Of a stretch of 64,000 nt of DNA, positions 3,608 through 62,859 are shown in pieces (positions within the stretch are counted from its first letter, which is position 1; each line of letters begins with the position of its first letter). The notes below the pieces were generated by a model. That model saw nothing but the letters and a program-made list of their open reading frames with translations, was not told the DNA's origin and searched no databases. The stretch is from Cyanidioschyzon merolae. Taxonomy: Eukaryota. Made by a program: the position numbers and the translations under genes. The stretch is taken from assembly GCA_000091205.1 (NCBI GenBank), contig AP006501.2; one strand, 5' to 3'.

Positions 3608-3786
3608 CATCAGCAATGACGACAGTAGCAATAGCTACGGTAACAATAGCTGGGGCAAGGGCGTCAGGCAGCACCTGCTGGAAATATCCAGGAGACCTCT
3701 CTCGAATCACTTCGCAACAGCAGCAGCAGTAGTAGCATTGATAACGACAGTACCAGTAGTAGTAGCAGCAGCAGCAGCAGCTATGA
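3584..3786. repeat. Imperfect CAG/CAA/TAG-type trinucleotide microsatellite tract immediately 3' of the AI-2E stop codon
   Basis: Runs of cagcagcagcagcagca, cagcagcagcagtagtagca and agcagcagcagcagcagc are seen directly. The minus-strand poly-Cys/Tyr ORF 3576..4058 is an artefact of this tract. Confidence 0.6.
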
Positions 3787-5223
3787 CTGGGGCGCGGACG
3801 TCGAAGCGCTCCTGCTCGGAGTATCCGGATATCGATCCCGCCAGTGATGCGCTTCTTTGCACCATGAGCGCGCGTGGCAACCAGCTGTGCACAAGAGAGG
3901 AAAGTGCACCCATAACGAGCGCTTGCGTGCTCAGAGGCGTGCGCTTTTCGGTGGTGAGCACAGCGTGGTCCCAAACCTGCACCGAAGCTGGGGTGCTCTC
4001 TGTGATCTGGTTTCTGCAATTTTGGGTCGGGGCAAAGCCCAGATACCCTAAAGCCCACTGGGATTAGAATGGAACACTGAGTTGCTTGCTCTGTTTTAGT
4101 CTTTCGATTTCTTTCCGGGGTCTTTTCAGATGTGGAGCTTATTTATTCGAAGCTTGGCAGTAGGAGCTTACGGATGCGCACGTCGGCATCGGATTCTTGG
4201 TCGTCTTCTCCAAATGACTAATTCGACCATTTGCTGCTTGAATTCCTTACGGCACAGGGGTAAAGATGCTCTGTGACGCCCTCGAGCAAAGCTTCGAATC
4301 ATAATCGATATTATCGCCCTTTGCGTATGTTCATGTCTGTACGCTTCTCCTTTCTTAGCGTATGGCATGCGAAAGTCGTGCATTCCTCAATTCCTCAACC
4401 TTTCTGTTTGAAGCCGACCTGTGCACACTGCAATTCGCACGCTTCCATGAACGTGGAAATTACTCGACGTCGAGCCTTGACGACCGGTTCACAAGCACAT
4501 GCCCAACGCTCACTGAACTCGACGTACGATTCTAGAATCGATTCAATTTTGGGTGGCAAATCAGCCGCGCGCTGTGGCTATCGACGAACCGACATGGAGC
4601 AACTGGTCGACACCTCTCACGGTACGTGCTGCAAGAGGCTTCCGTCTCTTCTGTTTGCACGAAAACTGGTCTCGGACATCCACTTCAGTTATCACAGCGA
4701 TCGCTTCCAGCGCAGCGTGCAGCAACGCTTGACAAGAAGCGAGCCTAGCCGGATCGAATTTTCTCGATTTGTTCTCCAAACTGGATATAACTTTCCATGC
4801 TTGCTGCATCAACGACAGCACCCGATGCCGCATATCACCCATCGAATGGAACAGAGTGCACTTGTGTGCGCACTGGAAAGAGCTCTCTCCTGGCGAATCG
4901 CCCAGCGGATGCCCGTATTCGTGGGGTACGTACGGCACTGGGTGCTACGCATCCAGACTTGGCTTGTGCTCGAGTCCGGCGTTCGAGCAGGACACAGCAG
5001 GTATCCGCTGCTGGTTACCGAGGGTACTCCAGCGCACATGCCACGCTTTTTCTGCGACAGTGAAGCTGCGAGCGCAGCCCGTGGAGCTCCCGGTACGTCG
5101 AAACGTTCGCAAAGTTTGCGAACGAGTCAGCGGTACTCACGTCTGGTGAGCGTTTCGCGAGAAACCTGCTTCGGCTCTGCGTGTCGTACCGCTTGATTCT
5201 GACGAGATCTAGTGCAGCGTACG

Positions 5224-7199: not shown

Positions 7200-7900
7200 A
7201 AGGCGACTAGATACCACCATGCAACGGTGAGATGCATCTGGTACAAGGCACCGCGGAACGAACGCACGAGACGTTCGACTGCGTTCGTATAGTCAGCACA
7301 ACGGAAAACGTTCTGCAACCCTCGAGGGTATACGTCTATATATGTACTCACGTGCAGACGCCTATCAGCCGTTTTTTGACCTGCCACCTGCTATCGGTTT
7401 TAGTTTATCCAGGCACACTTTGAGTCTGAGAAGCTGAATAACAAAGTTGGATGGTGTCCGCTTCTCGGGTCTGGTCTTCAGCACCGCATATCCTCTAGTA
7501 TTGGTGGTGGCGTTCAAGTCTCCGTTCAAGGACGCCAAGCATTTGTATAGCCTCTGCTGGTTGCACGGACGAGTGCAAGAATAGCTAGCGTTTGCGCCCT
7601 CTGTGCTAATAAAGTCTCGTCGGCAAACATCTTTTCTCGCGTAGCTCCGCTCTTCTCCTTCTTTTTGCCCTACATCATTCGATAGTCGACAAGAAGAGTT
7701 TTTTTGTCGAACCTGGCGATGACAGGCCTCCGGGATCCCCGACTTGCATGTCCATATCTTTCCCTTGGATTTTCATTTCATCAAATGAACGTACGTTGAA
7801 CGCGTCTGCTATAAACCTCGAAAAAGCGTTTAGTCACACGCACTTAAGGCTGGAACACATTCGAGGCGAAAGACGATAACAACCGAGCCACCAGCTTGTC
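7200..7900 (+). repeat. Dispersed non-coding repeat, family A, copy 1 (about 700 bp)
   Basis: Shares collinear similarity of about 70-80% with 22380..23080. Shared strings include cagtttatccaggcaca, gagtctgaga.gctg, and tcgacaagaagagtttttttgtcgaa versus tcgaggagaagagttttttgtcgaa. It has no conserved ORF. Boundaries are approximate. Confidence 0.5.
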
Positions 7901-10505: not shown

Positions 10506-10670
10506 AACGTTTGCACTCACGCGTTGAGCATCGGGAAGTGAAGGCACAGCTGGAGCAGTCGCACTGGAAGAGGTCTCACAGTGCGGAGAGACGACGCGGG
10601 AACTGCCTCATACACGCTGAACACACAGGCGGTGGCGATTTGAATATGCGTGTTGACGCGCGTCGACAGC

Positions 10671-10937
10671 GGAGCGTTCATGCGTGCAGGTCGGCAGCAG
10701 CGCGTACTGCGTCCTGCTCGGGGTATGCTGTATTCAGCGTGTGTGAAACGACTGGATGCACCGGGCTCGTGCTTCGTAGTGAACGCTGGAGCTGGACTGG
10801 ACTACCGCGGAGCGTTCATGCGTGCAGGTAGGCAGCAGCGCGTACTGCGTCCTGCTCGGGGTATGCTGTATTCAGCGTGTGTGAAACGACTGGATGCACC
10901 GGGCTCGTGTTTCGTAGTGAACGCTGGAGCTGGACGG
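10671..10937. repeat. Tandem duplication, 2 x about 138 bp with a truncated second unit, in the RAD52/translin divergent intergenic region
   Basis: The unit starts ggagcgttcatgcgtgcagg(t/c)(c/a)ggcagcagcgcgtactgcgtcctgctcggggtatgctgtattcagcgtgtgtgaaacgactggatgcaccgggctcgtg... and is repeated almost exactly at 10671 and 10809. It yields the internally repeated ORF 10650..11012. Confidence 0.8.
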
Positions 10938-12871: not shown

Positions 12872-13642
12872 GCTCCGGCAAGAGACTCTTTTCTCGTGGC
12901 GAGGCATTAGCGCTGATTTACGCAGAGCCGTTTGCACGCATTTGACCGAGAGCGCTTCGTTTCTGTATCGTTTACAGGAAAGCGCTGATCTTCAGCGTGA
13001 GGAAATCCGCGCACCCTCTGACGGAACTGGCCCATCTAGAAGGGATCGAATCCAACAATGGAGGCCTAGTGACAAGAGCAGTAGCAGCAGCAGCAGCAGC
13101 AGCCGGCAAGGCCGCGATTTGCGGTTCGGAATGATGCTCAGGATCCGGGCTCCTCCGATGAAACCTGGGATCAGCGTGTCGTTTGCGTTGCAAAAACTGG
13201 TTCTTCCTGGTGCAATCGAGCATACGTCTGCTCGATCGAGTCAGAAGCGATGCGCCTTTTGCGCGTATATAGAAGATCCCCCCCCTGACACATCAACCAA
13301 TATTCTCGAAGCACCTATCCATTCGACATCGCAACGCAGGACCACTGAGTGGCAGTTTTTGGACACGCGCTTCCGAACAGACCAAAGGACACTGGTTAGG
13401 CAACGTCGAAGCCGCGCACGACGCACGCTGTACCCGAGACATGTCGGATAAGGCAACGTCTCCTGCGCTGCGGAGACATTTTTGCCCGACGCAGCGCTAT
13501 ATCAACGGCTGTATGGACGCCCCCGGTGCCAGCATGGTACCTGTTGCTGAGGCTCCAAGGACGCGCCCATTGCTAGCATGACTAAGGCACTTGGCGTCTA
13601 GAACATACGTAACTCCGAGGGATCCGTGCCTGATTAAAGGCA

Positions 13643-14563: not shown

Positions 14564-16013
14564 TTCGGAGGCAGTCTGTCCCCGTCAAACTGCAGCTTTT
14601 TGCGCCGAAAACAAGTTCGCGCGTCCCAAGGATTGAGCCACTTGGCTCAGCAGAAAGTTCGATCGCAACAACTTTACACCAGAAACGTATCGACCGAATA
14701 CACTTATTCGGCTGAGCGTCTGGTCGCAGAATAGCAACCGGCTTCGCGCGGAAGCTTGGCGACTGCGTTGGCGTCAAGACGCTGCAGCTGCCCCGTACTG
14801 ACCGCTGAGGAACGATGGTCAAGTTTGAAGCGTTCGGGTCGCATCAGCGGCAGCGTGGACGTAAATGATCCAAATCTTGTACTGCTCTTGTCGACAGCTT
14901 TCATAGCTTACATACTCACCCGCAAAGCCTGCTTACGTCCGCTTCCGTCAAGACCCAGACACCAGATCATGCGCATTCGGGGTCATTGTTGGATGTCGGT
15001 AGACGGTTGTGCGCTGCATCTTGACGATGTTGACGCCTCAGTTGCTGCGTGCAGAAGACTTGGAACGAACAGCGAAGCGCGATTCGCTTTCAGACTTTCG
15101 CGAGGTCTGTGTTTCCAGCGCTGGGTCGTCCACTTGACACAGATCTTTGGGGCGGTGCTCGTAGGGATCACGCGGCACGCGGGAGATGCTTTCCAGAAAC
15201 GTTCTCTGTATCCGTTGGACACGACTGCAGGTTCCGTGGGATGATGACGTGATGCGGGTGCGCGTCCTCACTGAGACTGCTCCATACTGATCACCTACAG
15301 CGCGGGGATCGAGAACGGTATAGCCCAACTGAGCCCGAGGACGTGTCGGTATCGTACAGAAGCTCGATGAGATCGTGTCCGATGACGATGACGACGACGC
15401 GATGGACACAGCGACGTTGAGAAACCTCGTCCGTCGCAGACACCCCCTAGCATGCTGCAGCTACGTGAGGCTATGCTTTGCTGGGTGGAACGCTCCGTTG
15501 CCGATCGTTTCCTGTTCCGTTGCACGCGGAATCAAAGACTGCAACAGAGCGGCTGCTGAACGAAGAAAACTTGTCTTGTGGCGTCTCCCAGCTTTTTTTT
15601 TCGCTGTTTGGCCCATCCCGAGCATGTTTACGTCGCGTACGTCCATGTTCACGACGCACAACTCCCATACTACAATACGTGATGCACGTAGGTCAGGATT
15701 GGCGTCACAGATGCATATGAAGAGGTTTTCGAAGCAGCACCCGGACGAACGGTCTCTGCAGCTGATTCGACACCGTAGCCGCACACTCAGTCATTTGCTC
15801 ATGTACTGATTTCCTTCGGTAAGCACTCTTGCTCCGCTGCGGTATCCAAGCGCGTCCACGCCTTCCCAGCTATGTGTACCTGATCGCGTGTTGTACAAAA
15901 TCGATCCGCGCATCGCTCGCTCGCGGGATTCGCCTGCCCACACGCGAAACGCCTGGAGATTCGCGGCGATGCGCCGGCCGAGCGCATGGGCCCTGTGTGT
16001 GCGTATACGTGCC

Positions 16014-16072
16014 CTGCAGCAGCAGCAGCAGCAGCAGCAGGAGCAGCAGCAGCGGCGGCGGCGGCAGCGGCG
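16014..16072. repeat. (CAG)n-(CGG)n trinucleotide microsatellite
   Basis: cagcagcagcagcagcagcagcaggagcagcagcagcggcggcggcggcagcggcg is seen directly. It generates the artefactual poly-Q/poly-R and poly-C ORFs on both strands at 15791..16361. Confidence 0.7.
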
Positions 16073-16443
16073 ACTCGCGCATCGCGCGAGCAGCGATCCG
16101 CGTATGAACGGTGGCGTACCGAGTCGATCTGCGGTCCTGTCGCCGCCGCCTGTTGATTGTGGAACCCGCCGCCGTGTGCCCCCATTTTCACGCATGCGTT
16201 CCGTTGAGCGCACGCGTGCGATTCGTGCGATGATCGCAAAGCCGGTCACTCGATGCAGCAGATCGATCCGAGATTGCACGCACCGACGTGACCAATCGCT
16301 GCGCTGTGCGATTCGCGTCCACGCCACCGTGTACGGGGACGACGTACGCACGTGCCAATAGGGTTTAGGGGTCCGCCTAGAGAGCCTCTTTTCGGCGTTC
16401 TATAGTGGTCCGCTGGGCGACTAGTATTCGGTTTCCTAAGACA

Positions 16444-22379: not shown

Positions 22380-23080
22380 TGCGAATACGCACTCTGGATA
22401 GACGTACGGCTTCGAGTGGATGCAAAGCGAGGCGTCTCAGGTCTGTGGGGCAATGCGCATTGCCAATACGATCGGGAAAACGAACAATGTCCAGCGACGA
22501 TGCAGGGTACATGAATAGACTCCCGTGGACGGCTTCCAGTCATTTTTGAACGGCCCGATGCCATCGGGTTCAGTTTATCCAGGCACAGTGCGAGTCTGAG
22601 AGGCTGCTTCACAAAGTCGGCTCGCGTCAGCTCCTCAGATCTCGTCTTCAGGACCGCAGCTTGTCTGGTCAAGAGTACGGCGTCAAGGCTCGGGTCACGA
22701 ACGCCATATGTTTCTTGCCTCGCGTTGAACTCAGCCATGGAGGGAGTCCTAGAAAACGTGCCCGCTGTACGACTAGAGTCTCGTCATCGTCTCGTCGGGC
22801 AAACACCTTTTCTAGCCTATCTCCGCTCTTCATCCGCATCACTTGCACTTCTTCGCTCGATCGTCGAGGAGAAGAGTTTTTTGTCGAAACTGACGATGAC
22901 GGTCCTTCAGGATCCCGGATTTCCATCTCCGTACCTTTCTCTTGGGTTTTTTGTTTCCTCAAATGGACACACTTTGAACACATCTGTTATAGACCGCGAA
23001 TATACACTTCATGACACGCACCCGGAAACGGAACACCATTACGGTAAAAGACACCAGCGTACACCGCTGCAGCTACCTTG
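22380..23080 (+). repeat. Dispersed non-coding repeat, family A, copy 2
   Basis: Collinear with 7200..7900 (see that feature). Same orientation, about 15 kb away. Confidence 0.5.
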
Positions 23081-24590: not shown

Positions 24591-25183
24591 ACTCGGCATC
24601 CGGATGATTGTATCAATCATCCAGGATTCCCAATCGAATCTACGGGTGCTGTTGACCGATGGAATGGAACGTTACAGTGCGACATGATGGACGCTTCCCC
24701 GGATGCGCTGGACCATTCGTAGCACTGGGTATTCCCTGGTCCTTGGAGACGATCCGTCGATCAGCTGTTGGAAACGAACGTCTACCTAGCGGGTATCGCG
24801 ATGCCGGACGTTATCGTCAGCGATCCGCAGCGGTGGCGGCAGGCGCCAGGGCGCCCCGCGCGCTGGCATGTCCGCATTGTCGCAGGTTACGTAGCCGTAG
24901 CCTGTTTTTTACCGAAGAACGGACGACCTGTGCGAACATCCTCAAGTTGCTAACGCTGAAACGTTTGTTCGTGAACGCTTGGCAACTCCTTGTGTCCGGG
25001 GACAAGTATTTCGGTTAGGGGAGCAGGATACCGGGGGTTAGCGAGCGTTCTGAATACGACGACACACAGCCCGGAGAGTCATAGAGGTTGCTCTTCGTGC
25101 TTCGCTTGGGAGGGTGGCTAGCGCTGCCTCCGGACAGGACGAGTACTCCGGTCCAACTTCAGCAAACCGGAAACCGAACAGCG

Positions 25184-30092: not shown

Positions 30093-33000
30093 ACAACGGG
30101 CGAGCGCGCGATGCGTGCAGGTACGACGTATGCGCCCGCTGGGCATGCAGCAGCAGCGCCGTCGACGTCGACGCCGCTGATGCCGTCGACGGCGACGACG
30201 ACGGCAATGCGGCACGCCTGGCAGCAACGGTCTTGAGACCAAGGCGGTGTACCGCCTGACCCCATGTCCGCGGACTTGTACACGAAGCGGGCTGGGATTA
30301 GAGGCCGGTAACGCCGGCAACCTCAAAAGGCGCCGAAACGCCCTGCAAGTGCCGGCACTGGTGACCGCGGAGCGCCAACTGCCGCTTGGTGTGCTCAATG
30401 ATCCTAACGCTGATGATCCTGCTATTGCAGTTTTCATAGCAGCTCGGCAACCGCGCTTTGGTAAGGAGCAAAATCGTCAAAAGCCGGCAGTGATCGCTGT
30501 CGCTGCGGTTGCCGCATCACCTCTTGGTATCGCGAATGGCGTCCTTGATGCCATTGTCGATGCACTCGTGGACGTCGTTCGACGTCTGGATCCCTCGTTG
30601 CCGTCGACATCGGTCCATGAGCGAGCGATTCGAAGGTCGATGGTTGCAGCGATAGGGCCGAACCCTGCGACTGCAGATTACGGGTTCGTCACGGTTCGTT
30701 CGGATGTGCTGAAAGCGATTTTCTTGCCGTGGGCGGAACGCCCGCATGTCGGCCTGTCACGCCGCTGCTATTTTGTTCAGGATATTCAAAACGATGTGCA
30801 TTCAGTGATTTGTCGGAGCCGACGTACGCGTCTATCCTTTACGGTTTTGGCGCAGCGTCTGACGGGGCGTCACCGGAGCCTGGCGAACCCGTTACCAGCG
30901 ACACGTGAGTCGCACGGTATCCAGTTCCCGTTGCAAGAGTGGCATCTTCGACTCGCGCCTCCTGTTTACGAACGATTGCGCTGCATTGGCGTTGGACAAG
31001 TTGAGTTGACGCGCGTGCTTTTGCCGCGCGTGCCGATCACATCTCGCGAGGATATGCGTCATTTTTCCTACATCGTTTTTGGAGTGATTGAGAGTGTGGG
31101 CGTTGTCTGATGCAATGCAGACCGGGGGTTTCCCCAGCCCTAGTGTGCAACGCGTTCCAAAAGACGTGTTCTGCTTGATGGACACTAAGCGTTTTGATCA
31201 GCGGCCGACTTGTTGCATCGTACGCGAGTCCCGGTGCCAGAGCGGAGGCAGCCTTTTCCGCCAGCCTGTGTCAATGGAGATGTGCTTTAGCGGGCTCGCG
31301 TCTGCTGACCTTGATTCCAGTTTAGTGCGCTTTCGGCATGAGTCTGTGAGCAATTCATCACCGGACGAGATCAAGTGTTTCCCCTGCCTATCCAGCGCTG
31401 CGAGTGATTGCATGCGCAAGTTGCCTCGCGATAGAACAATAGGAGACTTGAAGAACGTCTGCTTCGAGCTTGCGACATGGAAGGAAAACGCAAGAATCGG
31501 GGCCTGTACATATAAATGGGTTTTCATATCGATTACTGTACGAAGCCTTGCACGAGGGCATCGCTCATCATCATCATGATACCAATCACGTAACGTTTCC
31601 CAGCGACAGAGCGTCGAAGGAGCCACTCCGAAAAAATCGGTCTATCATCGTGGAACTAGGCGTGAATCCGTAAATCCTAATTGCTGAACTTGGATTATCA
31701 AGGCTGTCCGAGTATAAAATCAAGTTCCGAAAATCAACGAAAAGCAGGAGTAGAACGAGCAGTCCAGTTATCTCGTTTTATCGGAGCCGCGCGCATGGTG
31801 GATGCGCTTCTGCAGCGTGTTTGCGTTCGGTCCGTTAGCGCGCGTTGCGAGGCTTGCGTTCTGATTTTATGAAAGCTGGTGTTTCTCAGGTTATTGTAGA
31901 TACGTTTGTGGTGGCTTGTCTCGGTCTTGCCGGAGCCATTATTGGTCTGGAGTACGCTTTGGACGGTGACGAAGCCGCCTGCAGCGAACTCACCAACGGC
32001 AAGGACGAGGTTGCCGACGATGCCGTTCGGGCACACGTGAGTGCAACGTGGCGCAGCGCTGCACTTTCGCGGGGTAGCGCAAGTGCCTGGCGGGACCTGA
32101 AACTGTTTTTAGACGAGCACGTCGCACCGGAGCTACCCAAGATGTTCCGTTTGATCGGACAGCATTGGCTGACCCCGAAAACTGCCTGGTTGTGGTCCGT
32201 GGTAAGCAGCTGGCGGGCAATCGCCTGAAAAGATGCGAGTTTCGAGCTGCGAGGCAAAAGCTGCGGCAAATTAGACTCGAAGTCACGACCTTAGGATGGC
32301 TTTCTTGGGCTCGTGTTATGAGACGTACGCGCTGTGGCACTGAGACTGAACTGGACAAAGTAGAACCAACTGCGCTACTACATCCAATGATTTCAGTTCG
32401 CCGTGGTCTACGTCTGCACCCCATAGCGTCGGGGGTTCGTTGCACCTGCGGCGCGTGCGTTTGTTTGTGCTCGCTTGCGTACGCTCTTTTTCACTAACCG
32501 TTTCAGCATGGTGTCACTTGTATTGTGCAACTTGATTGGATTTGCACCTTTTTGGACAGGTACGGCCTCGGTGCGCACCTTGTTGCGCAGATGGGATGCT
32601 TGCTTCATGACGTCAGTGCTATGATCCCTTGTCGTGAGGTACAGATGCGCATGAAGCGATAGCGCCCTTTGGCGGGTGCACGGTTGGTGTGCCGGAATGT
32701 GCACTCATCTGGTCAGCGTAAATTTATCATGCGGCATGCTTGCACCCAAGTCGACGTATACACGGACGAGCACGACCTTGCCTCAGTTATTTTTGGGGTA
32801 CGGAGTAGGGCGCTGCATGATCGTGTAGACGAACCGGGGGATTCCCGATTGCGCCATGGTTATCGGTATCCGCGAAAGCGTTCATCATTCTGCACGGGAC
32901 CGCCGCGTTTCAGGAGCCAATGCCGATAACTTCTTTTCGGAATTAGGGTTTGTTCGTCCAATTTTCCTGGTGCCGAGCGCCTGCCGTGTGCGCCCACTAT

Positions 33001-34331: not shown

Positions 34332-35456
34332 TCATGGATGAATAGTATCTTTGAATTCAAAGAACGAGTCATGCATGCGAATGAAAGAGTACTCCTCGCA
34401 TGACCCACAACACCCGTATAAATTAGGTTCTTTGTGAAAGATAGCGAACCCGGCGTGCATAAAACCTTGGAAAAACTCATCCACTTCTGGGATAGAGGCG
34501 ATACCCGCGTGCACTTCGATAAGGACTTGATTCACGTGCCGCAGCGCGTGCCAGGTTCTCAAGGCATATTGCTCTTCAGAGCTGAGTTCACGTTGGCTCC
34601 GTCCTTGGCGAAGGAGCTTGTCGGCTGCCCGGAACGCTCCCAAGAAAGAGGTGAACTCACCACCCTCGATATCGATCTTGAGCACCTCGACGACGTTTGG
34701 CAGCTCCAGGTGACCCAATCCAGACATGATCTCCGCCAGCGAATTGTTGCTCTCAGCCGGGCCAAGCGGCCGGCGAAAAAAACGAACGCGTTCCAGAAAG
34801 CTCTCGGAGTGCATCGCAGATGGTGGCGATGATGTTGGGTCAAAGACGAAAAAATCGCAGTCCGGCAAGCGTTCATGAAGCTTCGTTTCGAAACTGAAAT
34901 CGTTGTTGCTACCAAAACTGTACACAATGCAGCGATACGGGAGCCTGAGCTGCTCACGAAACAGCCGTCCCCGGTTCAGGATAGCAGGTGGGTCGCACAC
35001 CCATTTGCCACCGTCTCCGTTGTTACCGATCCGTTCCTCTAAGGCACAGCCGATATCCGGTTCCCAGTTATTGTAGAAAAAAACCGACGGGTTCGGTTCG
35101 AGGGTAACGGTCTGGCGCTTTCGCTGACGTCGTAACCGAATCCTCCGTTGGGCCCAGAGCGCGTCCGACTCGCACCAGAAGCCGAGCGACTCTTTCAGTG
35201 CTCGCGTGTCCTTCGAAGTCACTGGTAGGGTCCGGTCCCAAATCTCCGTCAGGGTTTTCGCGTTGCGCAAAGAGCTCCCACGACGAAGAGCCCTCGACAC
35301 GGAGCGAACGCAGCTGTCATCCACGGCGGGAAGATCCGCGCGCTGGACACCACTAGAGCGTCCGTTGAGAACACTAGTAGCGCGGTATATTACGATAAGA
35401 GCATAAATAAGAAAAGTCAAAGCCCCTGAAGCGATGCACGGTTTTCGCCACGTCAT
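34332..35456 (-). CDS. FkbM-family (Methyltransf_21-like) methyltransferase domain protein with an N-terminal hydrophobic anchor
   Basis: Shows ...CIVYSFGSNNDFSFETKLHERLPDCDFFVFDP...LKIDIEGGEFTSFL.... The first 80 codons of the track ORF 34332..35696 are a frame-shifted read of the element copy-1 3' tail (GRPLKVELYEKK echoes [12 protein letters not shown] of copy 2). I therefore place the start at the first ATG outside the element, 35456 (MTWRKPCIASGALTFLIYALIVIY). Confidence 0.5.
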   Translation of the reverse strand: MTWRKPCIASGALTFLIYALIVIYRATSVLNGRSSGVQRADLPAVDDSCVRSVSRALRRGSSLRNAKTLTEIWDRTLPVTSKDTRALKESLGFWCESDALWAQRRIRLRRQRKRQTVTLEPNPSVFFYNNWEPDIGCALEERIGNNGDGGKWVCDPPAILNRGRLFREQLRLPYRCIVYSFGSNNDFSFETKLHERLPDCDFFVFDPTSSPPSAMHSESFLERVRFFRRPLGPAESNNSLAEIMSGLGHLELPNVVEVLKIDIEGGEFTSFLGAFRAADKLLRQGRSQRELSSEEQYALRTWHALRHVNQVLIEVHAGIASIPEVDEFFQGFMHAGFAIFHKEPNLYGCCGSCEEYSFIRMHDSFFEFKDTIHP

Positions 35457-35489
35457 GCCGGCCACTGAAAACAAACGTCTTTCAAAAGA

Positions 35490-38400
35490 AAAACGCTGCC
35501 GCCAACGGTGTACAGTAGTTACGGGAAACGCGCCGTAAGCAAATCGTCTCCAGCTGAGGTGCAGACGCATCCCCGTCTTTTTCGACCGTCCACCTACTAC
35601 GTCTTTCATTTTCTTCTCATATAATTCCACTTTGAGAGGTCGCCCCACAGGTTCTCTCGTGTCGAATCTGGAGGTCTTTTCTCCAGCACCGCACATCTCC
35701 TGATATTGATAGCGACATTAAAGTCTCGGTTCACAAACTCCATGCGTTTCTTGCCATCTTTGGTTGTGCTTACTAATGCAAGTAGCCCACGAACTTTCGC
35801 CCTCCTTTCCATTTGCTCCTCCGTCAGCGGTCCGTACTTTGCTATTTCGTCAGGGCTCCTCTGGCACTTTTCCATCTCGATCCTTTGAAGTGTACAACAC
35901 AGTTCATGGTGTGTATACGATGTTCGGAACTCATCTACAGGTATTGTAACTAACCTGTCTGCACACCCCTTGTACGTTCTTGTCGTTGGAGCTCGTGTAC
36001 ACTCTTTTTCAGACGCCTAGCGCCCTGCTCCGTATGCTACTACCAGCCTTTGACTTTCATCCTCTTTGAAGGCACTCAGCTGACTGAAAAAGTTCGCGAA
36101 CGCACACTGCTTGCCACCGTATAGATTCATACGCAATCGAGGCCACCGGGGCTTTGTATACTCTTTCCACAGTGCCTCCTAATGAGCAATACGAACTTTC
36201 ATGAACTCCCGAAAAGCTTGAAAATCTGCTCCGCGGCTCGTCACCTCGCTCAAAGCTTCCAGGTGCTCTTTCATTCCTGCATTGCATGTCTCGTTTTTCT
36301 TCCTCGTATTCATCACACCGGATTCTCGATAGTATCTCGCTCTCGGGAACCTCAAAAGACGCATGTCTTTCTGAATGAAGTTGCCGTCTGGACCATATTC
36401 CGCACGCCTGGGTACAGCGATGGCTGTGACATTCGTATTCCCAGGGTCCGCGCCAACGACAAAGTCGTTATACTTCCTTTTCTGTGTGGCACAATCCGCC
36501 TCCTTCTCATCTTCATACCTCGTCACGTCAACGACAACGTCGTCATCCTCTACCTCTTGCGTAGCAGGATCCGCGTCTTTGTTTTCCTCATCCTTCGTGA
36601 CGGGCGCAGCCGAGGACGGAACTGGCCGAGCTGCCTTCAACCGCCGATAGTCTACACACTAGGCTACTCCATCGGTTTCGATCATCCCCGTGAATACCTT
36701 TTGCTTGCTCGTTTTGAGACGTTTGAAATCGAAGATGTTCTTCCAGTACGTCTCCCTGGTTTCACGGGTGAACTCTCTTTTCCTAAAGTTGAACTCCGGA
36801 CTGATTTCCCTCATGATGCCGTAAAGGACGCCGGAGTCGATAGTCACATAATGTGACTTGATGTTGCACAACGGAACGACGTTGAAGCGCTTCCCCATTA
36901 GGAAAGCCTTCTGTCTCTCCCACTCTTCATTCTTGTCCTCACTCGGCTTCATCTCCGCCTTGCGTTCGAGTTCACGGTCCAGAAACACGAAATAGCGCAG
37001 GATGAGGCGATAATGTCTTTCCTTATCTTTTTTCAACTCTGATACCTTTGCTGCTTGATTCGCCAGCCCCAGTACCGCACGGTGCTCTTGTATAGGCGCA
37101 CGGATTACAGAAGCTTCATTCGTGCTCCTGTGTGACGTCTTCTCATCAACGAATTCGATCTCATCTTCATGCTTGCGATCGTTCGTGATGCCATCGATAA
37201 TCGCCCATATTCCTTTGCGAGAGATGCCCGGATAGAGTGCAAACACCGCGCGTATGATGAAACGTTGGAGCTTCATGGTCATATGGTTCCTCAAGTTCGT
37301 GACGTACGTTTTCATCGCCCCGTAGGTGTAAACACTCGAGTCACCCCTGTATCGAGCACCGCCGAAGCGGGATTCGGTGTGGTTTTCGTGGAGGGCATGC
37401 ACTAGCTCATTTTGCTTCCGCGTTTCCGCTGTACCAAGCATCAGATGGCGAATAAAAGTCTTGTCGAATAATTCTTTCCGAACTTCGACTGTTTAGATGT
37501 CCGTCACGTCGCGATACATCCTCTTCACCAAATGCATGAGTCCTGAAGAGGCCTTTACAATACTCAAGGAGTACGACTCGTCATGGGTTCTGATAGCCTC
37601 CCGCACTTTTTCCCTGTACGGATCCTTGATATGTCCAAGAATACAGACTTTCACTACTGTCTCGTCGTACTGTCGTCTTTCTTGCAGCCATTGGCGTCGG
37701 GCTTCCATCTTTTGCTTCTTGGCCCTCTCCAGTTCCTGTGGACTCGGCACTGTTTTTCGGTTTTTTTTCTGGAAACCGGCGACACACTGGGCCTCCGGCA
37801 TCCTCCACTTCCACTTACGTACATTTCCTTTTTATTTTTTTGAAAAAGGAACCCCCTTTGACTGCTTCTTCTATGAACCGCGAACAATGACTTGAATACA
37901 CTCTCTTGAGAGTTGAAACACAACGGAATCGAAAAAATATACTTTGCTACGGCTTCAGAGCGAATACTACTCGTACATTAGAGCAGAATGCTAACGATCA
38001 GGATCGCGTTTCACTTCAACGGCGAGAAGCACGTCATGTATCATGCCCGCCAGATATGGAGATACGCGCATCGACCATGCTACACAAAAAAGGAAGAGAA
38101 ACTAGCAGTTCAATTGCAACGAGATAACGATTTCTTCTCCCTCTATGATACATATTAAAAGGGAGGCAAGATTTCCATGTAGTCGAAACTTTACTTTCCG
38201 GGCGGAAGGCCCTGCGAGCCGGACGAGTCTGCTAGACCAGTCCTTCATGATCTTCCCAGTGCTCAGTGCTGTGGTGATATTCGAGCAACTCGACCGAAAC
38301 GCAGTTTATTCTCGGGCCGGGGACGGGTATGCTGCGTCTGGGCATCGCGCTGGTCGCAGTGGACTCCTACAAAGTCGTTTCGCGCCACACTACACTGTAC

Positions 38401-38575
38401 CTCTGTCTGCGCAGAGTGCATGCTCCCAGGATGATATTGAATCCCGACCACGTTTCAGGTGAAGCTTTCCTCGATCCGAATCCCTCAGTGGTATGGCAAA
38501 GCCGCTCTGCCTCTATGATGCATCGGCATCAGCCGTATAAGCGCTTTTGCTGGAGGTCAAAGCGGGCACTCGGCG
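35490..38575 (-). mobile_element. TnpB/Fanzor-like RuvC-nuclease element, copy 1 (more decayed), inserted between the divergently transcribed FkbM-like and O-methyltransferase genes
   Basis: An about 3.08-kb block collinear with 58620..61636. The 5' 1.7 kb is about 99% identical between copies and the 3' 1.2 kb about 80-85%. Similarity stops at ...gggcactcggcgc (38575) and fades out near 35490. Confidence 0.6.
35606..37801 (-). pseudogene. Disrupted Fanzor/TnpB-like ORF of copy 1
   Basis: ORF0 37493..37801 (basic N-terminus, KKNRK / RAKKQK). In-frame TAA. ORF A 36659..37441, ending at a TAG where copy 2 has CTG. Fragment 36179..36640 carries RuvC-I ([11 protein letters not shown]). A gap at 35875..36179 lacks an ORF. 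Fragment 35606..35875 carries RuvC-III (NRDFNVAINI). Confidence 0.6.
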
Positions 38576-38794
38576 CACTTTAGTACTCACAAAACGATCC
38601 GTATATCCGAGAGGAAGTAAGCGTCATGGAACTTGAGGATAGGGTGCATCATGATGGACACTTTTTCGATTATTAATCCACATCCCGCAATTTGCGATCC
38701 AAGTACAATCTGAGCGTTTTGTCAAACCGAAAAGAAATCACCATGGCTGCAGACGCCCCCGGCGTGCTCACGAGTTGTTCAGCTCAGCGCCTCT

Positions 38795-39931
38795 ATGGTT
38801 CCAGAAGGTGCTTGCTCTGCCAAGGAGCTCACTGAAAACGACCAACTCCGCCAAATATATGCAATTTACTATGGCAACCGCAAAGCAGCAGTCCTTGCCG
38901 TTGCCCAGCGTTACCGAGTTTTTGACTTTTTAGAAGCCCGCGAACCGGCCGGAGCAACCCTCGATGATATCGTGCAAGCATACGGCTTTTCAGTTCGCGG
39001 AACGAAGGCGCTACTGCTTGCACTCGAGTACCTGAATCTGGTAAAGATTGCAAATGATCGCTACTTCCTAGCACCGTCCAGTCGACAGTTCTTGGTTTCC
39101 ACTGCACCAGAGTCTGTCGCTGGCTTGATCGACCTGGAGTTCTCGGAGTTTATCACACCGAGCGCCCTTGACCAAGCTTTACGTTCCGGACGACCACAAG
39201 TCTACGACGCTGTACCAGACGTATGGCAACAACACCAACAGGATACAGAGCGCTGCGTCCGCTTCACAGCTGCGATGCACGCTATCAGCAGTGGACCCGC
39301 TCGTGCTATGGTCCAGAGGCTCGCCCTCGAGCCGCACTGGGGCCTGCACGCGTCACTGGCAACGCGACCGCATCGTCTGCTTGATGTCGGTGGTGGCAGT
39401 GGCTGCTATGCCATCGAATGGATGCGGCATGCACCTGTACCTAACAGCGAAGCCGACGTGCTCGAGACGCCAGCCTGCAGCCGCGTGACCCAGCACTACA
39501 TCGACGAGGCCGCTTCGAGCATCCAACCGAATCGTATTCGCGTCCTGCCCGGTGATATGTTCACAGAAGAAGCGTACGGTGATGCGAATAGGTATACGCA
39601 CGTCCTGCTCTCGCAGATCCTTCACGACTGGCCAGTGCGTAGCGAGGCGTCGTCCGCACCGCGGCGAGATGGCGAACGCCTGGTAGAACTTGCGTGGCGG
39701 GCGCTATCTCCTGGAGGTGTCCTTGTTGTTCACGAGAAACTCGTGCACGATGAAGACTCCGCCATGGTGACTATAGATATGTTGCATTGGACCCAGGGTC
39801 AACAGTACACAGAGGCGATGATGCGGGAGCTGTTACGCGATGCGCATTTTATCGAGGTGCGCTTTCGGAAGACGCCTCACACCTACTGGTGGCTAGCCCT
39901 GGCGCAGCGACCATTCACCCCGAGTACGTAG
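38795..39931 (+). CDS. Family-2 (plant/bacterial-type) O-methyltransferase
   Basis: Has an N-terminal dimerisation/winged-helix region and a SAM-binding block RLLDVGGGSGCYAIEW...IRVLPGDMF...HVLLSQILHDW...GGVLVVHEKL. ATG confirmed at 38795. Confidence 0.6.
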   Translation: MVPEGACSAKELTENDQLRQIYAIYYGNRKAAVLAVAQRYRVFDFLEAREPAGATLDDIVQAYGFSVRGTKALLLALEYLNLVKIANDRYFLAPSSRQFLVSTAPESVAGLIDLEFSEFITPSALDQALRSGRPQVYDAVPDVWQQHQQDTERCVRFTAAMHAISSGPARAMVQRLALEPHWGLHASLATRPHRLLDVGGGSGCYAIEWMRHAPVPNSEADVLETPACSRVTQHYIDEAASSIQPNRIRVLPGDMFTEEAYGDANRYTHVLLSQILHDWPVRSEASSAPRRDGERLVELAWRALSPGGVLVVHEKLVHDEDSAMVTIDMLHWTQGQQYTEAMMRELLRDAHFIEVRFRKTPHTYWWLALAQRPFTPST

Positions 39932-56792: not shown

Positions 56793-57659
56793 TGGATATG
56801 AGTATAATGGCCAACTCGAGTGGCGAGCTGTGCATCCATGTGGCGGTGAACGAGTCCCGAAACGGTCGCTTGCTGAATACAGTCTACCTGTGGTCGACTT
56901 GTGCGCTGTTTCGGGCGCTTCGCAGAGTAGTCTCTGCTTATGCGTGCTCTGTCGGTCCGCCAATGCGGCTCGCGTCGAAGAGGGTATACAGCTGCTGAAA
57001 ATGTTCACCACGGTCGGTGTTCAGAAGTCTCTGCTTGTGCGTGCTCTGTCGGTCCGCCAATGCGGCTCGCGTCGAAGAGGGTGTACAGCTATTGGAAATG
57101 CTCGCCTCGGTCGGTGTTCAAAGCATCTGCGAGGAGGCCCTGCTGCCGTCCCAAGCGCAACAAATGCCCCAGTTCCGATCGTAGGAGCCATCCCGTCGCA
57201 GGTGCGCTGGTTTCACGCTCATTGACTGTTTTGACGGCGACGCGCTGGCGTGCAGCACTTGGTGACCCATGGGACGCTTCCAGACATCCGCGGTTCCGTT
57301 CAGCGCTTGCCTTTACGCCGTCCTGGTTCAACGGGAACGTCAGTCATCTCGAAACGGCAGCGTGTACCTACTCTGGTTTTAGGCTTCACGAGCGTGGATG
57401 AGCGGCTCACTAGTCGCTGCCTTGTCCCTAATGCGTCAGCATTCCACTTCCACGTGTCGAGCGTAGCACGTTAGGGTCTCCCTATCGCTAACTCGAAGCT
57501 GGTCCCCGGAAGCAGCTCTCTCCAACAGAGCCGCATCCCAGCTGAGGAATCAGCGCAACAGTTACAGCGACCAGGCGTTCACAACTCACTGTGCTCTGGG
57601 GGACTGCAGAACACGCAAGTCCATGGAATACTCTGGTTAATGGCGTGCAATCAAGATCA

Positions 57660-58538
57660 TCAACTAGCTGTGGCCGATAATCGTTTGTTCTGAACCTGGC
57701 GGCGACGCTGGTCAAAGTCCGTGAACCCCACCATTTCTGAGAGCGCTGCGGTTGGCGCTTCAGCCAGGTGCCCTCGATTACCCTCCAGTTCCAATCGTTG
57801 TAAAGCACCGAGTTCGATAAAGAGATCGACGGGCAGCGATTCTAAACGATTATGGTCCAAACACAGCTGCCGCAAGTTTTGCAAACCCCGCAACGACTCG
57901 ATATTTAAGGTTTGCAATTCATTTCGGGATAGGATCAACACTTCAAGCGCTGGAAAGGATTTGCTCAGCCATTTCGGGAGAGAGCTGATGTGATTTCCCG
58001 CGAGGTTGAGATACCGCAAGCAGGGAAAAACGATGTTCCTGCATGCATCAGGGACGCACGGCAGACGATTATCGCTTAACGATAGCCACTGCAGTGGCGA
58101 CGTCGGCTTGACACCGGACACCGGGTCTGGCTCGTGCTGCGCTTGTACACTCAAGTTGGCGCGGTGTTCGGTTGTGTGCAGGTCACCAATAGCATTTCGC
58201 GCCAGGTTAAGCGACCAAAGACGCGGCAGGGCGTATAGCAGTGCAGCTGGTACCGTGACTAGCTCGTTTTCGGACAGATCCAGTCGCTCCAGGCTCCGCA
58301 AGTGTTCCAGAAGCGAAGATGGAAACGTTTTCACCCCGCCATAGCGAGCGTAGAGCACTCGAACCCGCTCGCCGTGCTTCAACAGCTGAGGCACAGCGCG
58401 GTCCCAGTGGATGCTTTGAACCGATGCCACACCAGTTTGCAACCAGCGCTGTGCGCTTTCATCTTCGTTTCTGGAGTGCAGCGGATGTGAAGCTTCCCTA
58501 CTGCGTGCTCCAAAGCAGTCTGCGAGTACGTTCCCCAT
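57660..58538 (-). CDS. Leucine-rich repeat protein
   Basis: Has at least 8 LxxLxLxxNxL repeats (LERLDLSENELVTVP, LWSLNLARNAIGDL, LQWLSLSDNRLPCVP, LRYLNLAGNHISSLP, LEVLILSRNELQTL, LRQLCLDHNRLESLP...). The track start at 58559 is GTG and the first ATG is at 58538. Confidence 0.55.
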   Translation of the reverse strand: MGNVLADCFGARSREASHPLHSRNEDESAQRWLQTGVASVQSIHWDRAVPQLLKHGERVRVLYARYGGVKTFPSSLLEHLRSLERLDLSENELVTVPAALLYALPRLWSLNLARNAIGDLHTTEHRANLSVQAQHEPDPVSGVKPTSPLQWLSLSDNRLPCVPDACRNIVFPCLRYLNLAGNHISSLPKWLSKSFPALEVLILSRNELQTLNIESLRGLQNLRQLCLDHNRLESLPVDLFIELGALQRLELEGNRGHLAEAPTAALSEMVGFTDFDQRRRQVQNKRLSATAS

Positions 58539-58619
58539 GAGCGGTAGCTGCAGCAGCACTTGAAGCCATGAGCCCTTTTCGACCTTTCGTTGGTCTGTTC
58601 GGTAGTGGCAGCCGCCAAA

Positions 58620-58740
58620 CTACGCTCTGATGTCGGGCGTCGCCACCAGCGGTGTAGAATAGTGGCGAGAAAGTCGACCCAGAAAAATCGTTTCTAGCTG
58701 TCGTGCAGACGCCTCCCCGTCCTTCTCGACCGGCCACGTA
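58620..58740 (-). ncRNA. Candidate omega-RNA (guide RNA scaffold) region immediately 3' of the RuvC ORF stop codon
   Basis: The non-coding sequence 3' of the stop is conserved between copies for about 110-120 bp (for example gtgcagacgc.tccccgtc, aaatcgt.tc.agctg). It ends where the unrelated host flanks begin. This is by analogy with TnpB/Fanzor loci only. Confidence 0.25.
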
Positions 58741-59856
58741 CTACTGGTTCCATTTTTTTTCATATAGTTCCGCTTTGAGAGGTTGTCCAAGAAAAAGCTC
58801 TCGTGTCCACTCTGAAGGTCTTCTTTCCATCACCGCACATGTCCTTATATTGATAGCGGCATTAAAATCTCGGTTCACAAACTCCATACGTTTCTTGCCA
58901 TTGACTGTACTTAATAATGCGAGTAGTCCTCGAACATTCGCCCACCTTTCCATATGCTCCTCCGTCAGCGGTCCGTACTTTGCTATTTCGTCAGGGCTCC
59001 TCTGGCACTTTTCCATCTCGATCCTTTGAAGTGTACAACACAGTACATGGTGTGTATACGATGTTCGGAACTCATCTACAGGTACTATGACAAAACGTCG
59101 TGCGTACTCCTTATACGTTCTCGTCGTTGGAGCTGGTGTACACCCTTTTTGGGTCTTCGAGCGCGCTGCTCCGTACGCCACTACGAGCCTCTGACATTGA
59201 TCCTCTTTGAGGGCACTCAACCCATTGAAAAAATTCGCGAACGCCCGTTGCCTCCCACAATATAGATTCATACACAGACGAGCCCACCGAGGCTTTGTAT
59301 ATTCATTCCGCAGCGCATCCCAATGAGCAACACGAACATTCATGAATTTCAGAAAAGCTGTAAAGTCCGCTCCGCGGCTCGTCACCTCGCTCAAAGCTTC
59401 TACGTGATCCTTCATTCCTGCATTCCATGTCTCAATTTTCTTCGTTGCATTCATGATTCCCGATTCTCGATAGAATCTTGCTCTCGAGAACCTCAAAAGT
59501 CGCATGTCTTTCTGAAGCAAGTTACCGTCCTTACCATCTTCGGCACGCTTGGGTACAGCGATGGTTATGATATTTGTGTTTCCGGGGTCCGCGCCAACGA
59601 CAAAGTCTATCTCATGCACTTTCAGTGCCGCAGGATCCGCGTCTCTGTTTTCCTCATGCTTCGTCATGGGCGAAGCCGAAGGCACGATAGGAAGAAACGC
59701 CTCCAAGCGCTTGCAGTCTACACACAGGGCTACTCCATCGGTTTCGATCATCCCCGTGAATACCTTTTGCCTGCTAACTTTTGAGACGTCTGAAATCGAA
59801 GAGACTCTTCCAGTACGTGTCAGGGGCTTCGCCGGTGAACTCTGTCCGCCTTCCAT
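58741..59856 (-). CDS. Element ORF B: TnpB/Fanzor-type RuvC nuclease domain with a degenerate zinc-finger insert
   Basis: Ruv[20 protein letters not shown]. Ruv[29 protein letters not shown]/Zn-finger remnant H..CC....C. Ruv[23 protein letters not shown]. The order and spacing are as in TnpB/Fanzor/Cas12. It continues the ORF A reading frame after the +1 shift (shared ...[13 protein letters not shown]). Confidence 0.65.
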
Positions 59857-60508
59857 CGAACTCCGGACAGATCCCCTTCATGATGCCATGAAGGACGCCG
59901 GAGTCGATAGTCACATAATGTGACTTGATGTTGCACAACGGAACGACGTTGAAGCGCTTCACCGCTAGGAAAGCCTTCTGTCTTTCCCACTCTTCACTCT
60001 TGTCCTCACTCGGCTTCATCTCCGCCTTGCGTTCGAGTTCACGGTCCAGAAACACGAAATAGCGCAGGATGAGGCGATAATGTCTTTCCTTATCTTTTTT
60101 CAACTCTGATACCTTTGCTGCTTGATTCGCCAGCCCCAGTACCGCACGGTGCTCTTGTATAGGCGCACGGATTACAGAAGCTTCATTCGTGCTCCTGTGT
60201 GACTTCTTCTCATCAACGAATTCGACCTCATCTTCATGCTTGCGATCGTTCGTGATGCCATCGATAATCGCCCATATTCCTTTGCGAGAGATGCCCGGAT
60301 AGAGTGCAAACACCGCGCGTATGATGAAACGTTGGAGCTTCATGGTCATATGGTTCCTCAAGTTCGTGACGTACGTTTTCATCGCCCCGTAGGTGTAAAC
60401 ACTCGAGTCACCCCTGTATCGAGCACCGCCGAAGCGGGATTCGGTGTGATTTTCGTGGAGGGCGTGCACTAGCTCATCTTGCTTCCGCGTTTCCGCTGTA
60501 CCAAGCAT
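59774..60508 (-). CDS. Element ORF A: N-terminal (non-RuvC) half of the Fanzor/TnpB-like protein
   Basis: ATG confirmed at 60506..60508. It is 244 aa and about 95% identical to copy-1 ORF A (36659..37441). It ends at a stop created by a +1 insertion relative to copy 1 (aaaagttagcaggcaaaagg versus aaaacgagcaagcaaaagg). Confidence 0.55.
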
Positions 60509-60559
60509 CAGATGGCGAATAAAAGTCTTGTCGAATAATTCTTTCCGAACTTCGACTGT

Positions 60560-60883
60560 TTAGATGTCCGTCACGTCGCGATACATCCTCTTCACCAAAT
60601 GCATGAGTCCTGAAGAGGCCTTTACAATACTCAAGGAGTACGACTCGTCATGGGTTCTGATAGCCTCCCGCACTTTTTCCCTGTACGGATCCTTGATATG
60701 TCCAAGAATACAGACTTTCACTTCTGTCTCGTCGTACTGTCGTCTTTCTTGCAGCCATTGGCGTCGGGCTTCCATCTTTTGCTTCTTGGCCCTCTCCAGT
60801 TCCTGTGGACTCGGCACTGTTTTTCGGTTTTTTTTTTCTGGAAACCGGCGACACACTGGGCCTCCGGCATCCTCCACTTCCAC
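60560..60883 (-). CDS. Element ORF0: basic (NLS-like) N-terminal segment of the Fanzor-like protein, separated from ORF A by an in-frame TAA present in both copies
   Basis: Reads ...KKNRKTVPSPQELERAKKQKMEARRQWLQERRQYDETEVKVCILGHIKDPYREKVREAIRTHDESYSLSIVKASSGLMHLVKRMYRDVTDI. Copy 2 has an A10 run where copy 1 has A8, which shifts the N-terminal frame. The in-frame start is GTG. Confidence 0.45.
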   Translation of the reverse strand: MEVEDAGGPVCRRFPEKKNRKTVPSPQELERAKKQKMEARRQWLQERRQYDETEVKVCILGHIKDPYREKVREAIRTHDESYSLSIVKASSGLMHLVKRMYRDVTDI

Positions 60884-61710
60884 TTACGTACATTTCCTTT
60901 TTATTTTTTGAAAAAGGAACCCCCTTTGACTGCTTCTTCTATGAACCGCGAACAATGACTTGAATACACTCTCTTGAGAGTTGAAACACAACGGAATCGA
61001 AAAAATATACTTTGCTACGGCTTCAGAGCGAATACTACTCGTACATTAGAGCAGAATGCTAACGATCAGGATCGCGTTTCACTTCAACGGCGAGAAGCAC
61101 GTCATGTATCATGCCCGCCAGATATGGAGGTACGCGCATCGACCATGCTACACAAAAAAGGAAGAGGAACTAGCAGTTCAATTGCAACGAGATAACGATT
61201 TCTTCTCCCTCTATGATACATATTAAAAGGGAGGCAAGATTTCCATGTAGTCGAAACTTTACTTTCCGGGCGGAAGGCCCTGCGAGCCGGACGAGTCTGC
61301 TAGACCAGTCCTTCATGATCTTCCCAGTGCTCAGTGCTGTGGTGATATTCGAGCAACTCGACCGAAACGCAGTTTATTCTCGGGCCGGGGACGGGTATGC
61401 TGCGTCTGGGCATCGCGCTGGTCGCAGTGGACTCCTACAAAGTCGTTTCGCGCCACACTACACTGTACCTCTGTCTGCGCAGAGTGCATGCTCCCAGGAT
61501 GATATGGAATCCCGACCACGTTTCAGGTGAAGCTTTCCTCGATCCGAATCCCTCAGTGGTATGGCAAAGCCGCTCTGCCTCTATGATGCATCGGCATCAG
61601 CCGTATAAGCGCTTTTGCTGGAGGTCAAAGCGGGCACTCGGCGCCCGATAGAATATACAAAAAGACTAGTACGTCCGAAAGGAGGTACCTTTCATGGAAC
61701 AAAAACGTAG

Positions 61711-62859
<1,149 letters not shown>

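Follow-up and report, generated by a model that had tools for sequence, protein, structure and literature searches.

A decayed Fanzor1-type element family placed near host gene starts in a 64-kb red-algal DNA stretch and related metagenome contigs

Two inactivated Fanzor1-type insertions at divergent gene pairs

The 64-kb stretch of DNA analysed here (contig AP006501.2, hereafter the window) contains one long dispersed repeat, identified by self-comparison as 35498-38752 = 58642-61819 on the same strand. Its two occurrences, copy 1 and copy 2, are inactivated pseudogene insertions of an element whose gene, judged by profile matches, is of the Fanzor1 type (RNA-guided nuclease), and the placement of this element family relative to host genes is the subject of this report. 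The coding strand of the repeat is the minus strand in both copies. Each copy sits within a divergent gene pair (Table 1): the neighbour beyond its 3' end is encoded on the minus strand and the one beyond its 5' end on the plus strand. The flanks of the two copies are unrelated to each other. Copies in two divergent promoter regions had already been noticed in an earlier sequence-only reading of the window, and this arrangement is borne out by the self-comparison and by the Pfam assignments of the neighbouring genes. The host sequence, with long intron-free open reading frames (ORFs) and 55% G+C, is consistent with a Cyanidiophyceae-like red alga, an assignment drawn from the closest named protein hits (Galdieria phlegrea and Cyanidium caldarium, 45-49% identity).

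Element ends were set from multi-copy alignments with unrelated flanks together with nhmmer profiles of both termini. The 3' end of copy 1 lies 5 nucleotides (nt) from the start codon of the FkbM-like gene at 35456, and its 5' end (38738) lies 56 nt from the O-methyltransferase ATG at 38795. For copy 2, the distances are ~70 nt from the 3' end to the ATG of the leucine-rich repeat (LRR) gene at 58538 and 86 nt from the 5' end (61807) to the ATG of the FabG-type reductase gene at 61894, the first one outside the element. The CCGGC junction of copy 1 with the FkbM-like gene is also present in a second sample (L089). In the sequence-only reading both 3' ends abutted minus-strand start codons, which holds insofar as both are near; its 3' end for copy 2 (~58620, ~80 bp from the ATG) was essentially right, and that for copy 1 (~35490) has moved to 35462. 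The 5' ends it gave, 38575 and 61636, fall 165-175 nt short of the true ends because they had been set where a tract of 99% identity between the two copies abruptly stops. In total, one start codon and three of the four element-end positions had to be revised, and the geometry of the two copies, described as identical before, is similar but not identical once the ends are corrected.

The start codons that define these distances were examined individually. ATG 35456 is a genuine start, as 99% of the 374-amino acid protein begun there is covered in alignments with orthologues that are 54-55% identical to it; the membrane anchor is formed by the residues just after this ATG, and the ORF is uninterrupted in two samples. 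The ORF track fuses the copy 1 tail to the FkbM-like gene in a 454-amino acid ORF (34332..35696), as noticed earlier. If this gene is expressed, a gap of only 5 nt means that its 5' untranslated region (UTR) and promoter must be located within the element. The FabG start used by the ORF track and by the sequence-only reading, 61711, sits 97 nt inside copy 2 and is therefore an artefact of the track, like the FkbM fusion; the 321-amino acid form starting at 61894 is the gene call on five other contigs. In the longer, 382-amino acid FabG ORF, 61711-61893 encodes the first 61 codons, of which codons 1-32 lie within the element, and the protein read from Met62 begins MLLFANP..., which to us resembles a transit peptide for plastid import, including a Phe near its start. 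An identical O-methyltransferase protein is encoded on four other contigs, all four of which break inside the element. The nearest matches of the FkbM-like protein are found in Galdieria phlegrea (45% identity), Cyanidium caldarium (49%) and metagenome proteins (54-55%), and the orthologues on other metagenome contigs have different neighbours, so gene order is not conserved.

Sequence relatives of the element are numerous. Used as a protein query, the C-terminal ORF of copy 2 retrieved 254 relatives, all from metagenomes, an exhaustive HMMER search yielded 1502 cluster representatives at 50% identity, many of them 600-700 amino acids long, and a scan of metagenome contigs identified 377 related stretches, from which 80 loci were retrieved. 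Single copies or the consensus gave no significant match in Pfam, NCBIfam, PHROGs or a narrow-profile search of the PDB, and PF07282 was matched below threshold in 3 of 10 distant members. A profile built from 40 diverse members, by comparison, matches the Fanzor1 proteins of Parasitella (9cf0, E = 7.2e-22), Spizellomyces (8gkh, E = 4e-15) and Guillardia (9cer, E = 1.7e-9), and the same search of the PDB returned no TnpB, TnpA or Fanzor2 chains. Family members conserve the motifs DPG(N/R)T, (V/I)DEFRT and NRDxNAAxNI, which line up with the RuvC motifs of the PDB Fanzor1 chains; all three RuvC-type motifs are present in both window copies. An AlphaFold2 model based on a 37-sequence alignment was too poor for a fold search, with a mean predicted local distance difference test score (pLDDT) of 36 and a predicted template modelling score (pTM) of 0.24. 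Just upstream of the first RuvC motif, the Fanzor proteins carry acidic tandem units of ~19 amino acids (e.g. VQDNDLVVDAAKHEEKKEA) whose number varies among copies from 0 to more than 4 (copy 1 36526-36600 versus a gap at ~59612 in copy 2; alignment columns 280-400).

Both window copies have lost their reading frame. In copy 1 the frame runs through four ORF pieces; it contains a TAA codon also present in copy 2, a further three TAG codons and a frameshift toward the C terminus. In copy 2 it runs through three ORF pieces (60883-60560, 60508-59774 and 59856-58741), with the same TAA and, near 59778, a frameshift, the latter being absent from an orthologous copy of copy 2 on another contig (L006). 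No intact full-length ORF was found in the 80 loci, where the longest spans 599 amino acids. The majority consensus of 38 copies, however, translates into an uninterrupted ORF of 759 amino acids. Every copy examined is broken yet the consensus is intact, which therefore identifies a transposable-element family whose copies decayed independently. There is a single ORF in the copies and in the consensus, with no second gene or transposase inside the element, and no TnpA gene (Y1 or serine) is present in or beside any copy examined. The element-derived share of the retrieved sequence is ~22%, in loci that had been picked for carrying an element. Two or more family members within 10 kb of each other were seen on several contigs (L043, L031 and L026, ~2700 and ~8106; L015, 3206 and 10047; L038, L028, L039 and L076), so that the local density is high.

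Base-by-base pairwise alignment of copies 1 and 2 revealed a mosaic of three zones of very different identity (Table 1). The same in-frame TAA, at 37493-37495 in copy 1 and 60560-60562 in copy 2, lies within the 99% tract and represents a GAA-to-TAA change, as Glu is encoded here in the rest of the family. The outer 5' zones still match the family consensus in spite of their low mutual identity. The long near-identical tract and the common nonsense codon might suggest that a segmental duplication, not transposition, produced both copies and that their shared geometry reflects a single origin. This idea was rejected on account of the unrelated flanks and the mosaic identity and is extremely improbable: no homology extends past the element ends, the 3' halves are 82% and the outer 5' 165 nt only ~60-65% identical, and hundreds of copies occupy other sites. 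Gene conversion between independent insertions fits the tract better, and the 99% tract is probably the product of a non-allelic conversion event that postdates the nonsense mutation and involved two separate insertions lying 23 kb from each other. A further possibility, under which the 5' ends of the sequence-only reading would have held, is that the outermost 165-190 nt on the 5' side represent a separate repeat targeted by a core element. It was likewise rejected, as diverged solo fragments run on into the interior, and it is also contradicted by the constant length of ~3.2 kb observed for full copies of the family.

Table 1. Positions of the two element copies, their zones of identity, flanking host genes and smaller element-derived pieces.
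Feature	Position	Strand	Description
Copy 1	35462..38738	-	3277 nt; pseudogenised Fanzor1-type gene; ~0.9 kb 5' non-coding, ~130 nt 3' tail
Copy 2	58606..61807	-	~3200 nt; 3' end uncertain by ~6 nt (58606-58612); pseudogenised
Copy 1 3' tail	35462..35640	-	ORF end, predicted hairpins, terminal stem-loop with its foot at the element end; terminus profile E = 5e-48
Gap between copy 1 and FkbM-like gene	35457..35461	-	5 nt, CCGGC, read from sequence
Identity zone, 5' tract	38575 to ~36830 (copy 1); 61643 to ~59897 (copy 2)	-	~99% identity; 1.75 kb
Identity zone, 3' half	36830 to ~35495 (copy 1); ~59897 to ~58640 (copy 2)	-	~82% identity; 55-nt insertion/deletion
Identity zone, outer 5'	beyond 38575 (copy 1); beyond 61643 (copy 2)	-	~60-65% identity
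FkbM-like / Methyltransf_22 gene	34332..35456	-	374 amino acids; N-terminal membrane anchor; Pfam PF13383, E = 5e-33
O-methyltransferase gene	38795..39931	+	Pfam PF00891 and PF08100
LRR gene	57660..58538	-	292 amino acids, starts MGNVL...; Pfam LRR_8, E = 2e-31
FabG-type reductase gene	61894..62859	+	321 amino acids from first ATG outside element; Pfam adh_short
Derivative m1	7331..7860	-	ORF-less, ~530 bp, related subfamily; keeps start-of-ORF region and 3' tail
Derivative m2	22510..23040	-	second ORF-less derivative, ~530 bp; 70% identical to m1
Decayed 5'-region fragment	32825..32955	+	nhmmer E = 1.4e-11; weak similarity continues inward
Decayed 5'-region fragment	24662..24758	-	nhmmer E = 1.4e-5; outer end faces P-type ATPase start 25184
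Truncated copy 2 remnant, L090	633-813		corresponds to window 61628-61807; DNA unrelated to window beyond
Truncated copy 2 remnant, L091	262-443		corresponds to window 61628-61807; DNA unrelated to window beyond

Family-wide placement relative to host genes

Placement was analysed for 45 unique 3' junctions and 24 unique 5' junctions from related metagenome contigs. Genes were called as ATG-to-stop ORFs of at least 100 amino acids and scored with a model of codon usage for which long ORFs served as the training set, junctions were dereplicated by flank similarity (≥85% over 100 nt), and the first gene beyond each element end was classified. Of the 3' junctions, 28 face the start of a co-oriented gene and 10 the end of a gene, with no gene called for the other 7, and the corresponding numbers for 5' junctions are 16, 2 and 6. 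The 3' end is directed toward a gene start in 74% of cases, compared with 38-43% expected under simulated random intergenic insertion (p = 1e-5 to 1e-4). Of the 28 3' ends that face a start, 17 are no more than 100 nt from the ATG (61% versus 9% expected, p ~1e-11), and 29% are no more than 30 nt away (3% expected, p ~1e-6). Observed 3' end-to-ATG distances are 0, 5, 6, 9, 10, 26, 27, 28, 42, 52, 53, 67, 69, 72, 84, 95, 100, 131 nt and upward. The two ends differ in this respect, with a median distance to the start of ~70 nt for the 3' end and ~310 nt for the 5' end (5' range 47-966; Mann-Whitney p = 0.001), and junctions within 30 nt of an ATG are found for 8 of 45 3' ends versus 0 of 24 5' ends (Fisher p = 0.026).

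The orientation of the surrounding genes is similarly skewed. The 39 occupied intergenic regions comprise 22 divergent, 14 tandem and 3 convergent ones, compared with 31, 55 and 65, respectively, among element-free regions on the same contigs (chi-square p = 4e-14 length-weighted, 2e-8 by count). The excess at gene 5' regions is a property of the whole family and not chance. Mapping other copies against gene starts had been suggested in the sequence-only reading, and the 5' bias it anticipated is found, with p values from 1e-4 to 1e-11 against random intergenic placement. Its wider proposal of either insertion preference for or tolerance at divergent promoters stands as far as the bias itself is concerned (22 of 39 regions divergent; 17 of 28 distances at or below 100 nt); which of its two halves applies is a matter of interpretation, considered below. 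Its further suggestion, altered expression of the four flanking genes, is kept here as a possibility.

Could crude gene calls and redundant metagenome contigs have generated this pattern? Genes were called as ORFs with a codon-usage score, and the contigs come from several overlapping samples, both of which make an artefact conceivable. We consider it very improbable given that sites were dereplicated, that the ORFs abutting the elements are long (160-850 amino acids), that the four window genes carry Pfam domains and that the null was built with the same gene caller.

A more serious alternative is random integration followed by purifying selection alone, in which only insertions into divergent promoters would be harmless enough to survive in a compact genome. 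A long selective filter is certain, since every copy is old, decayed and apparently fixed, and the absence of a target motif from the flanks (information content ~0) agrees with random integration. Convergent and tandem regions, however, represent ~86% of element-free intergenic bases yet only 17 of the 39 occupied regions, of which 3 are convergent. In addition, an insertion 5-30 nt upstream of an ATG severs the promoter and should be among the least tolerated, yet 8 of 45 junctions are located there. Selection alone is thus unlikely, and it is a weaker explanation than the combination of biased integration and selective persistence that we favour.

No empty allele was found through exact look-ups of the flanking proteins, through the FkbM-like orthologues or by comparing all flanks with all loci. 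The FabG locus is present in two other metagenomes (L090 and L091), where it is 95-97% identical across FabG and keeps only the outer ~190 nt of the copy 2 5' end (Table 1). L091 shows a co-oriented gene upstream, and the breakpoint is no more than ~20 nt from where the 99% tract ends. These loci were considered as empty sites and rejected; they represent a rearranged locus with a truncated copy 2.

Element termini, 3' tail and smaller derivatives

The consensus of the 5' terminus is (A)TTTTTTTCGATGACAAAACGTTTACATTGACCATGGATCCCAGATTGCGGGA. Two tail variants are found at the 3' terminus, ...TTTTTCTTTTGAAAGACGTTTGTTTYCAGGGG and ...TTCGACTTTCGAACGGCGTTTGGTG, each consisting of a long hairpin followed by unrelated DNA. 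No significant terminal inverted repeats were detected in eight copies (p = 0.1-0.98). Characterised Fanzor and TnpB elements adjoin a defined motif on their 5' side (PMC10530073, PMC10432273), and in the present family the 5' terminus consists of a variable T-rich run followed by CGATGAC, so that the run could partly be target DNA. Sequence-directed targeting, by a motif resembling a target-adjacent motif (TAM) or by a guide-matched sequence common just upstream of ATGs, might thus be invoked to explain the placement. We regard this as improbable: there is no conserved position in the 24 nt on either side of the element (information content ~0), no target-site duplication is seen at family junctions, and the spacing between the 3' end and the ATG is continuous from 0 to more than 250 nt instead of fixed.

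The non-coding 3' tail is predicted to be structured. RNAfold assigns -47.9 kcal/mol to the copy 1 tail, terminal hairpin included, and the last ~170 nt of both tail variants have predicted folding energies of -46 to -74 kcal/mol. In the predicted fold a long-range stem is accompanied by internal hairpins and by a hairpin at the very end, the 3' strand of which consists of the element's last bases; this terminal hairpin is made from different sequences in the two variants. When the consensus-fold structure is applied to the tails, 76% of cells are paired versus 37-47% when it is slid along the sequence. The tail has no match in Rfam. By analogy with characterised Fanzor loci (PMC10432273, PMC10530073), the 3' tail is probably a guide-RNA (omega-RNA) scaffold and is treated here as a candidate for one.

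Element-derived pieces in the 64-kb window number six, including two ORF-less derivatives (m1 and m2) and two decayed fragments of the 5' region (Table 1). The 3' side of m1 is directed toward a gene end and its 5' side toward a gene start. At least six more ORF-less derivatives were seen in other loci, one of them just past the window end (L006 3455-4030). Other repeats in the window are a tandem duplication at 56926-57119 upstream of the LRR gene region (97 nt x2, 91% identical), a second tandem duplication at 10666-10935 (132 nt x2, 98% identical, copy starts 138 nt apart) and CAG/GCA trinucleotide runs in or near long ORFs at 3584-3794, 13073-13119 and 16008-16081.

Proposed explanation and relation to known Fanzor elements

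Many eukaryotic DNA transposons favour promoter and 5' UTR DNA. Insertions of the P element, Mutator, hAT/Hermes, mPing and Tf1 are enriched at gene 5' ends, in nucleosome-poor promoter DNA, and the family described here is similarly enriched at gene 5' ends. It differs from those transposons in two respects: their preference has been demonstrated on de novo insertions, whereas only old retained copies are available here, and the present family shows an added asymmetry, with the 3' end near a co-oriented ATG and the 5' end further off. With moderate confidence, we interpret the copies as old, inactive Fanzor1 insertions whose integration favours promoter and 5' UTR DNA and of which close, co-oriented copies persist through read-out. 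Integration would favour promoter and 5' UTR DNA in general, and copies very near an ATG would persist mainly when co-oriented with the gene. The element may be transcribed out through its 3' end in order to copy a guide from the flanking DNA, and this read-out could supply the mRNA of the gene downstream.

A more elaborate version of this explanation assigns the read-out a selected role. The guide-RNA read-out unit would double as promoter and 5' UTR of the abutting gene, and elements would be retained, or partly domesticated, as portable promoters. The closest guides would then be copied from the first codons of the host gene, which are conserved, favouring RNA-guided homing into empty alleles. 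We advance this version only tentatively and consider it doubtful.

Several observations weigh against biased integration combined with persistence through read-out. All insertions are old and fixed, without a polymorphic site, and integration preference and selective retention are consequently not separable; outward transcription, the use of read-out by host genes and integration preference over retention are steps that we infer. Gene calls are rough and missed genes may inflate the intergenic lengths of the null, some of the sites counted as unique may be paralogous, and for one tail variant the estimated 3' end overshoots by ~5 nt, which leaves the picture unchanged. The ratio of nonsynonymous to synonymous polymorphism (pN/pS) of the FkbM-like gene rests on 12 differences, too few to inform. 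Derivatives m1 and m2 do not show the start-abutting geometry, and in a small set of ORF-less derivatives the 3' side faces a start in two cases and an end in two, that is, without bias. Covariation in the tail is weak (0.126 versus 0.118 shuffled, with 20 of 500 shuffles as high), and RNAalifold applied to 43 tails returned no consensus structure.

The family shares most of its features with characterised Fanzor1 elements. Like SpuFz1 of Spizellomyces punctatus and related Fanzor1 systems, it has a single ORF of ~700-760 amino acids with significant similarity to solved Fanzor1 proteins (8gkh, 9cf0, 9cer). As at the SpuFz1 loci (PMC10432273), it is multicopy with full and partial copies, and ORF-less derivatives of the m1/m2 type keep the end regions in the manner of the 'ghost' loci reported for Spizellomyces (PMC10432273). 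A conserved non-coding tail extends from the ORF end to the 3' end of the element, the site of the guide RNA in characterised systems. In characterised Fanzor and TnpB elements the corresponding tail serves as guide-RNA scaffold, with the guide transcribed from the adjoining flank. In contrast to SpuFz1, which has well-conserved flanking inverted repeats (PMC10432273), none is significant here, and unlike in characterised Fanzor1 loci every copy examined here is a pseudogene.

Precedents exist for several aspects of this family. Fanzor homologues in rhodophytes have been reported (PMC10530073), as have Fanzor carriers without a transposase and ORF-less relatives (PMC10530073, PMC10432273), and non-autonomous carriers with transposon ends only have been described (PMC10530073, PMC12636532). 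In Auxenochlorella, a streamlined green alga, a Fanzor-encoding element is the most abundant repeat (PMC12636532). The passages of the Fanzor literature returned by keyword search contain no mention of a start-codon-abutting Fanzor family with a guide-donating end, and those returned from PMC10530073 and PMC12636532 do not mention insertion sites relative to genes. Similarities also extend to the bacterial IS200/IS605 and IS607 TnpB elements (PMC10711439). There, too, the gene for the RNA-guided nuclease precedes a structured 3' end (predicted in the present case), inverted repeats and target duplications are not obvious, and a hairpin is located near the 3' terminus. Unlike those elements, the present family lacks TnpA in the copies examined, its profile matches Fanzor1 only and its host is eukaryotic.

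Fanzor proteins are eukaryotic relatives of the ancestors of CRISPR-Cas12. Here a whole Fanzor1 family is positioned with its putative guide-donating end against host start codons. At least one intact gene, separated from the element by 5 nt, would have to be transcribed from within the element if it is expressed. Were selection alone to act, the family would neatly illustrate which sites in a streamlined genome can accommodate mobile DNA. If host genes do make use of the read-out, guide-RNA production would be tied to host gene regulation, and the family would offer a natural system for studying site choice by such elements, or their survival once inserted, in a compact, largely intron-poor genome resembling that of a red alga, within a group, the Cyanidiophyceae, that includes cultured and genetically tractable members.

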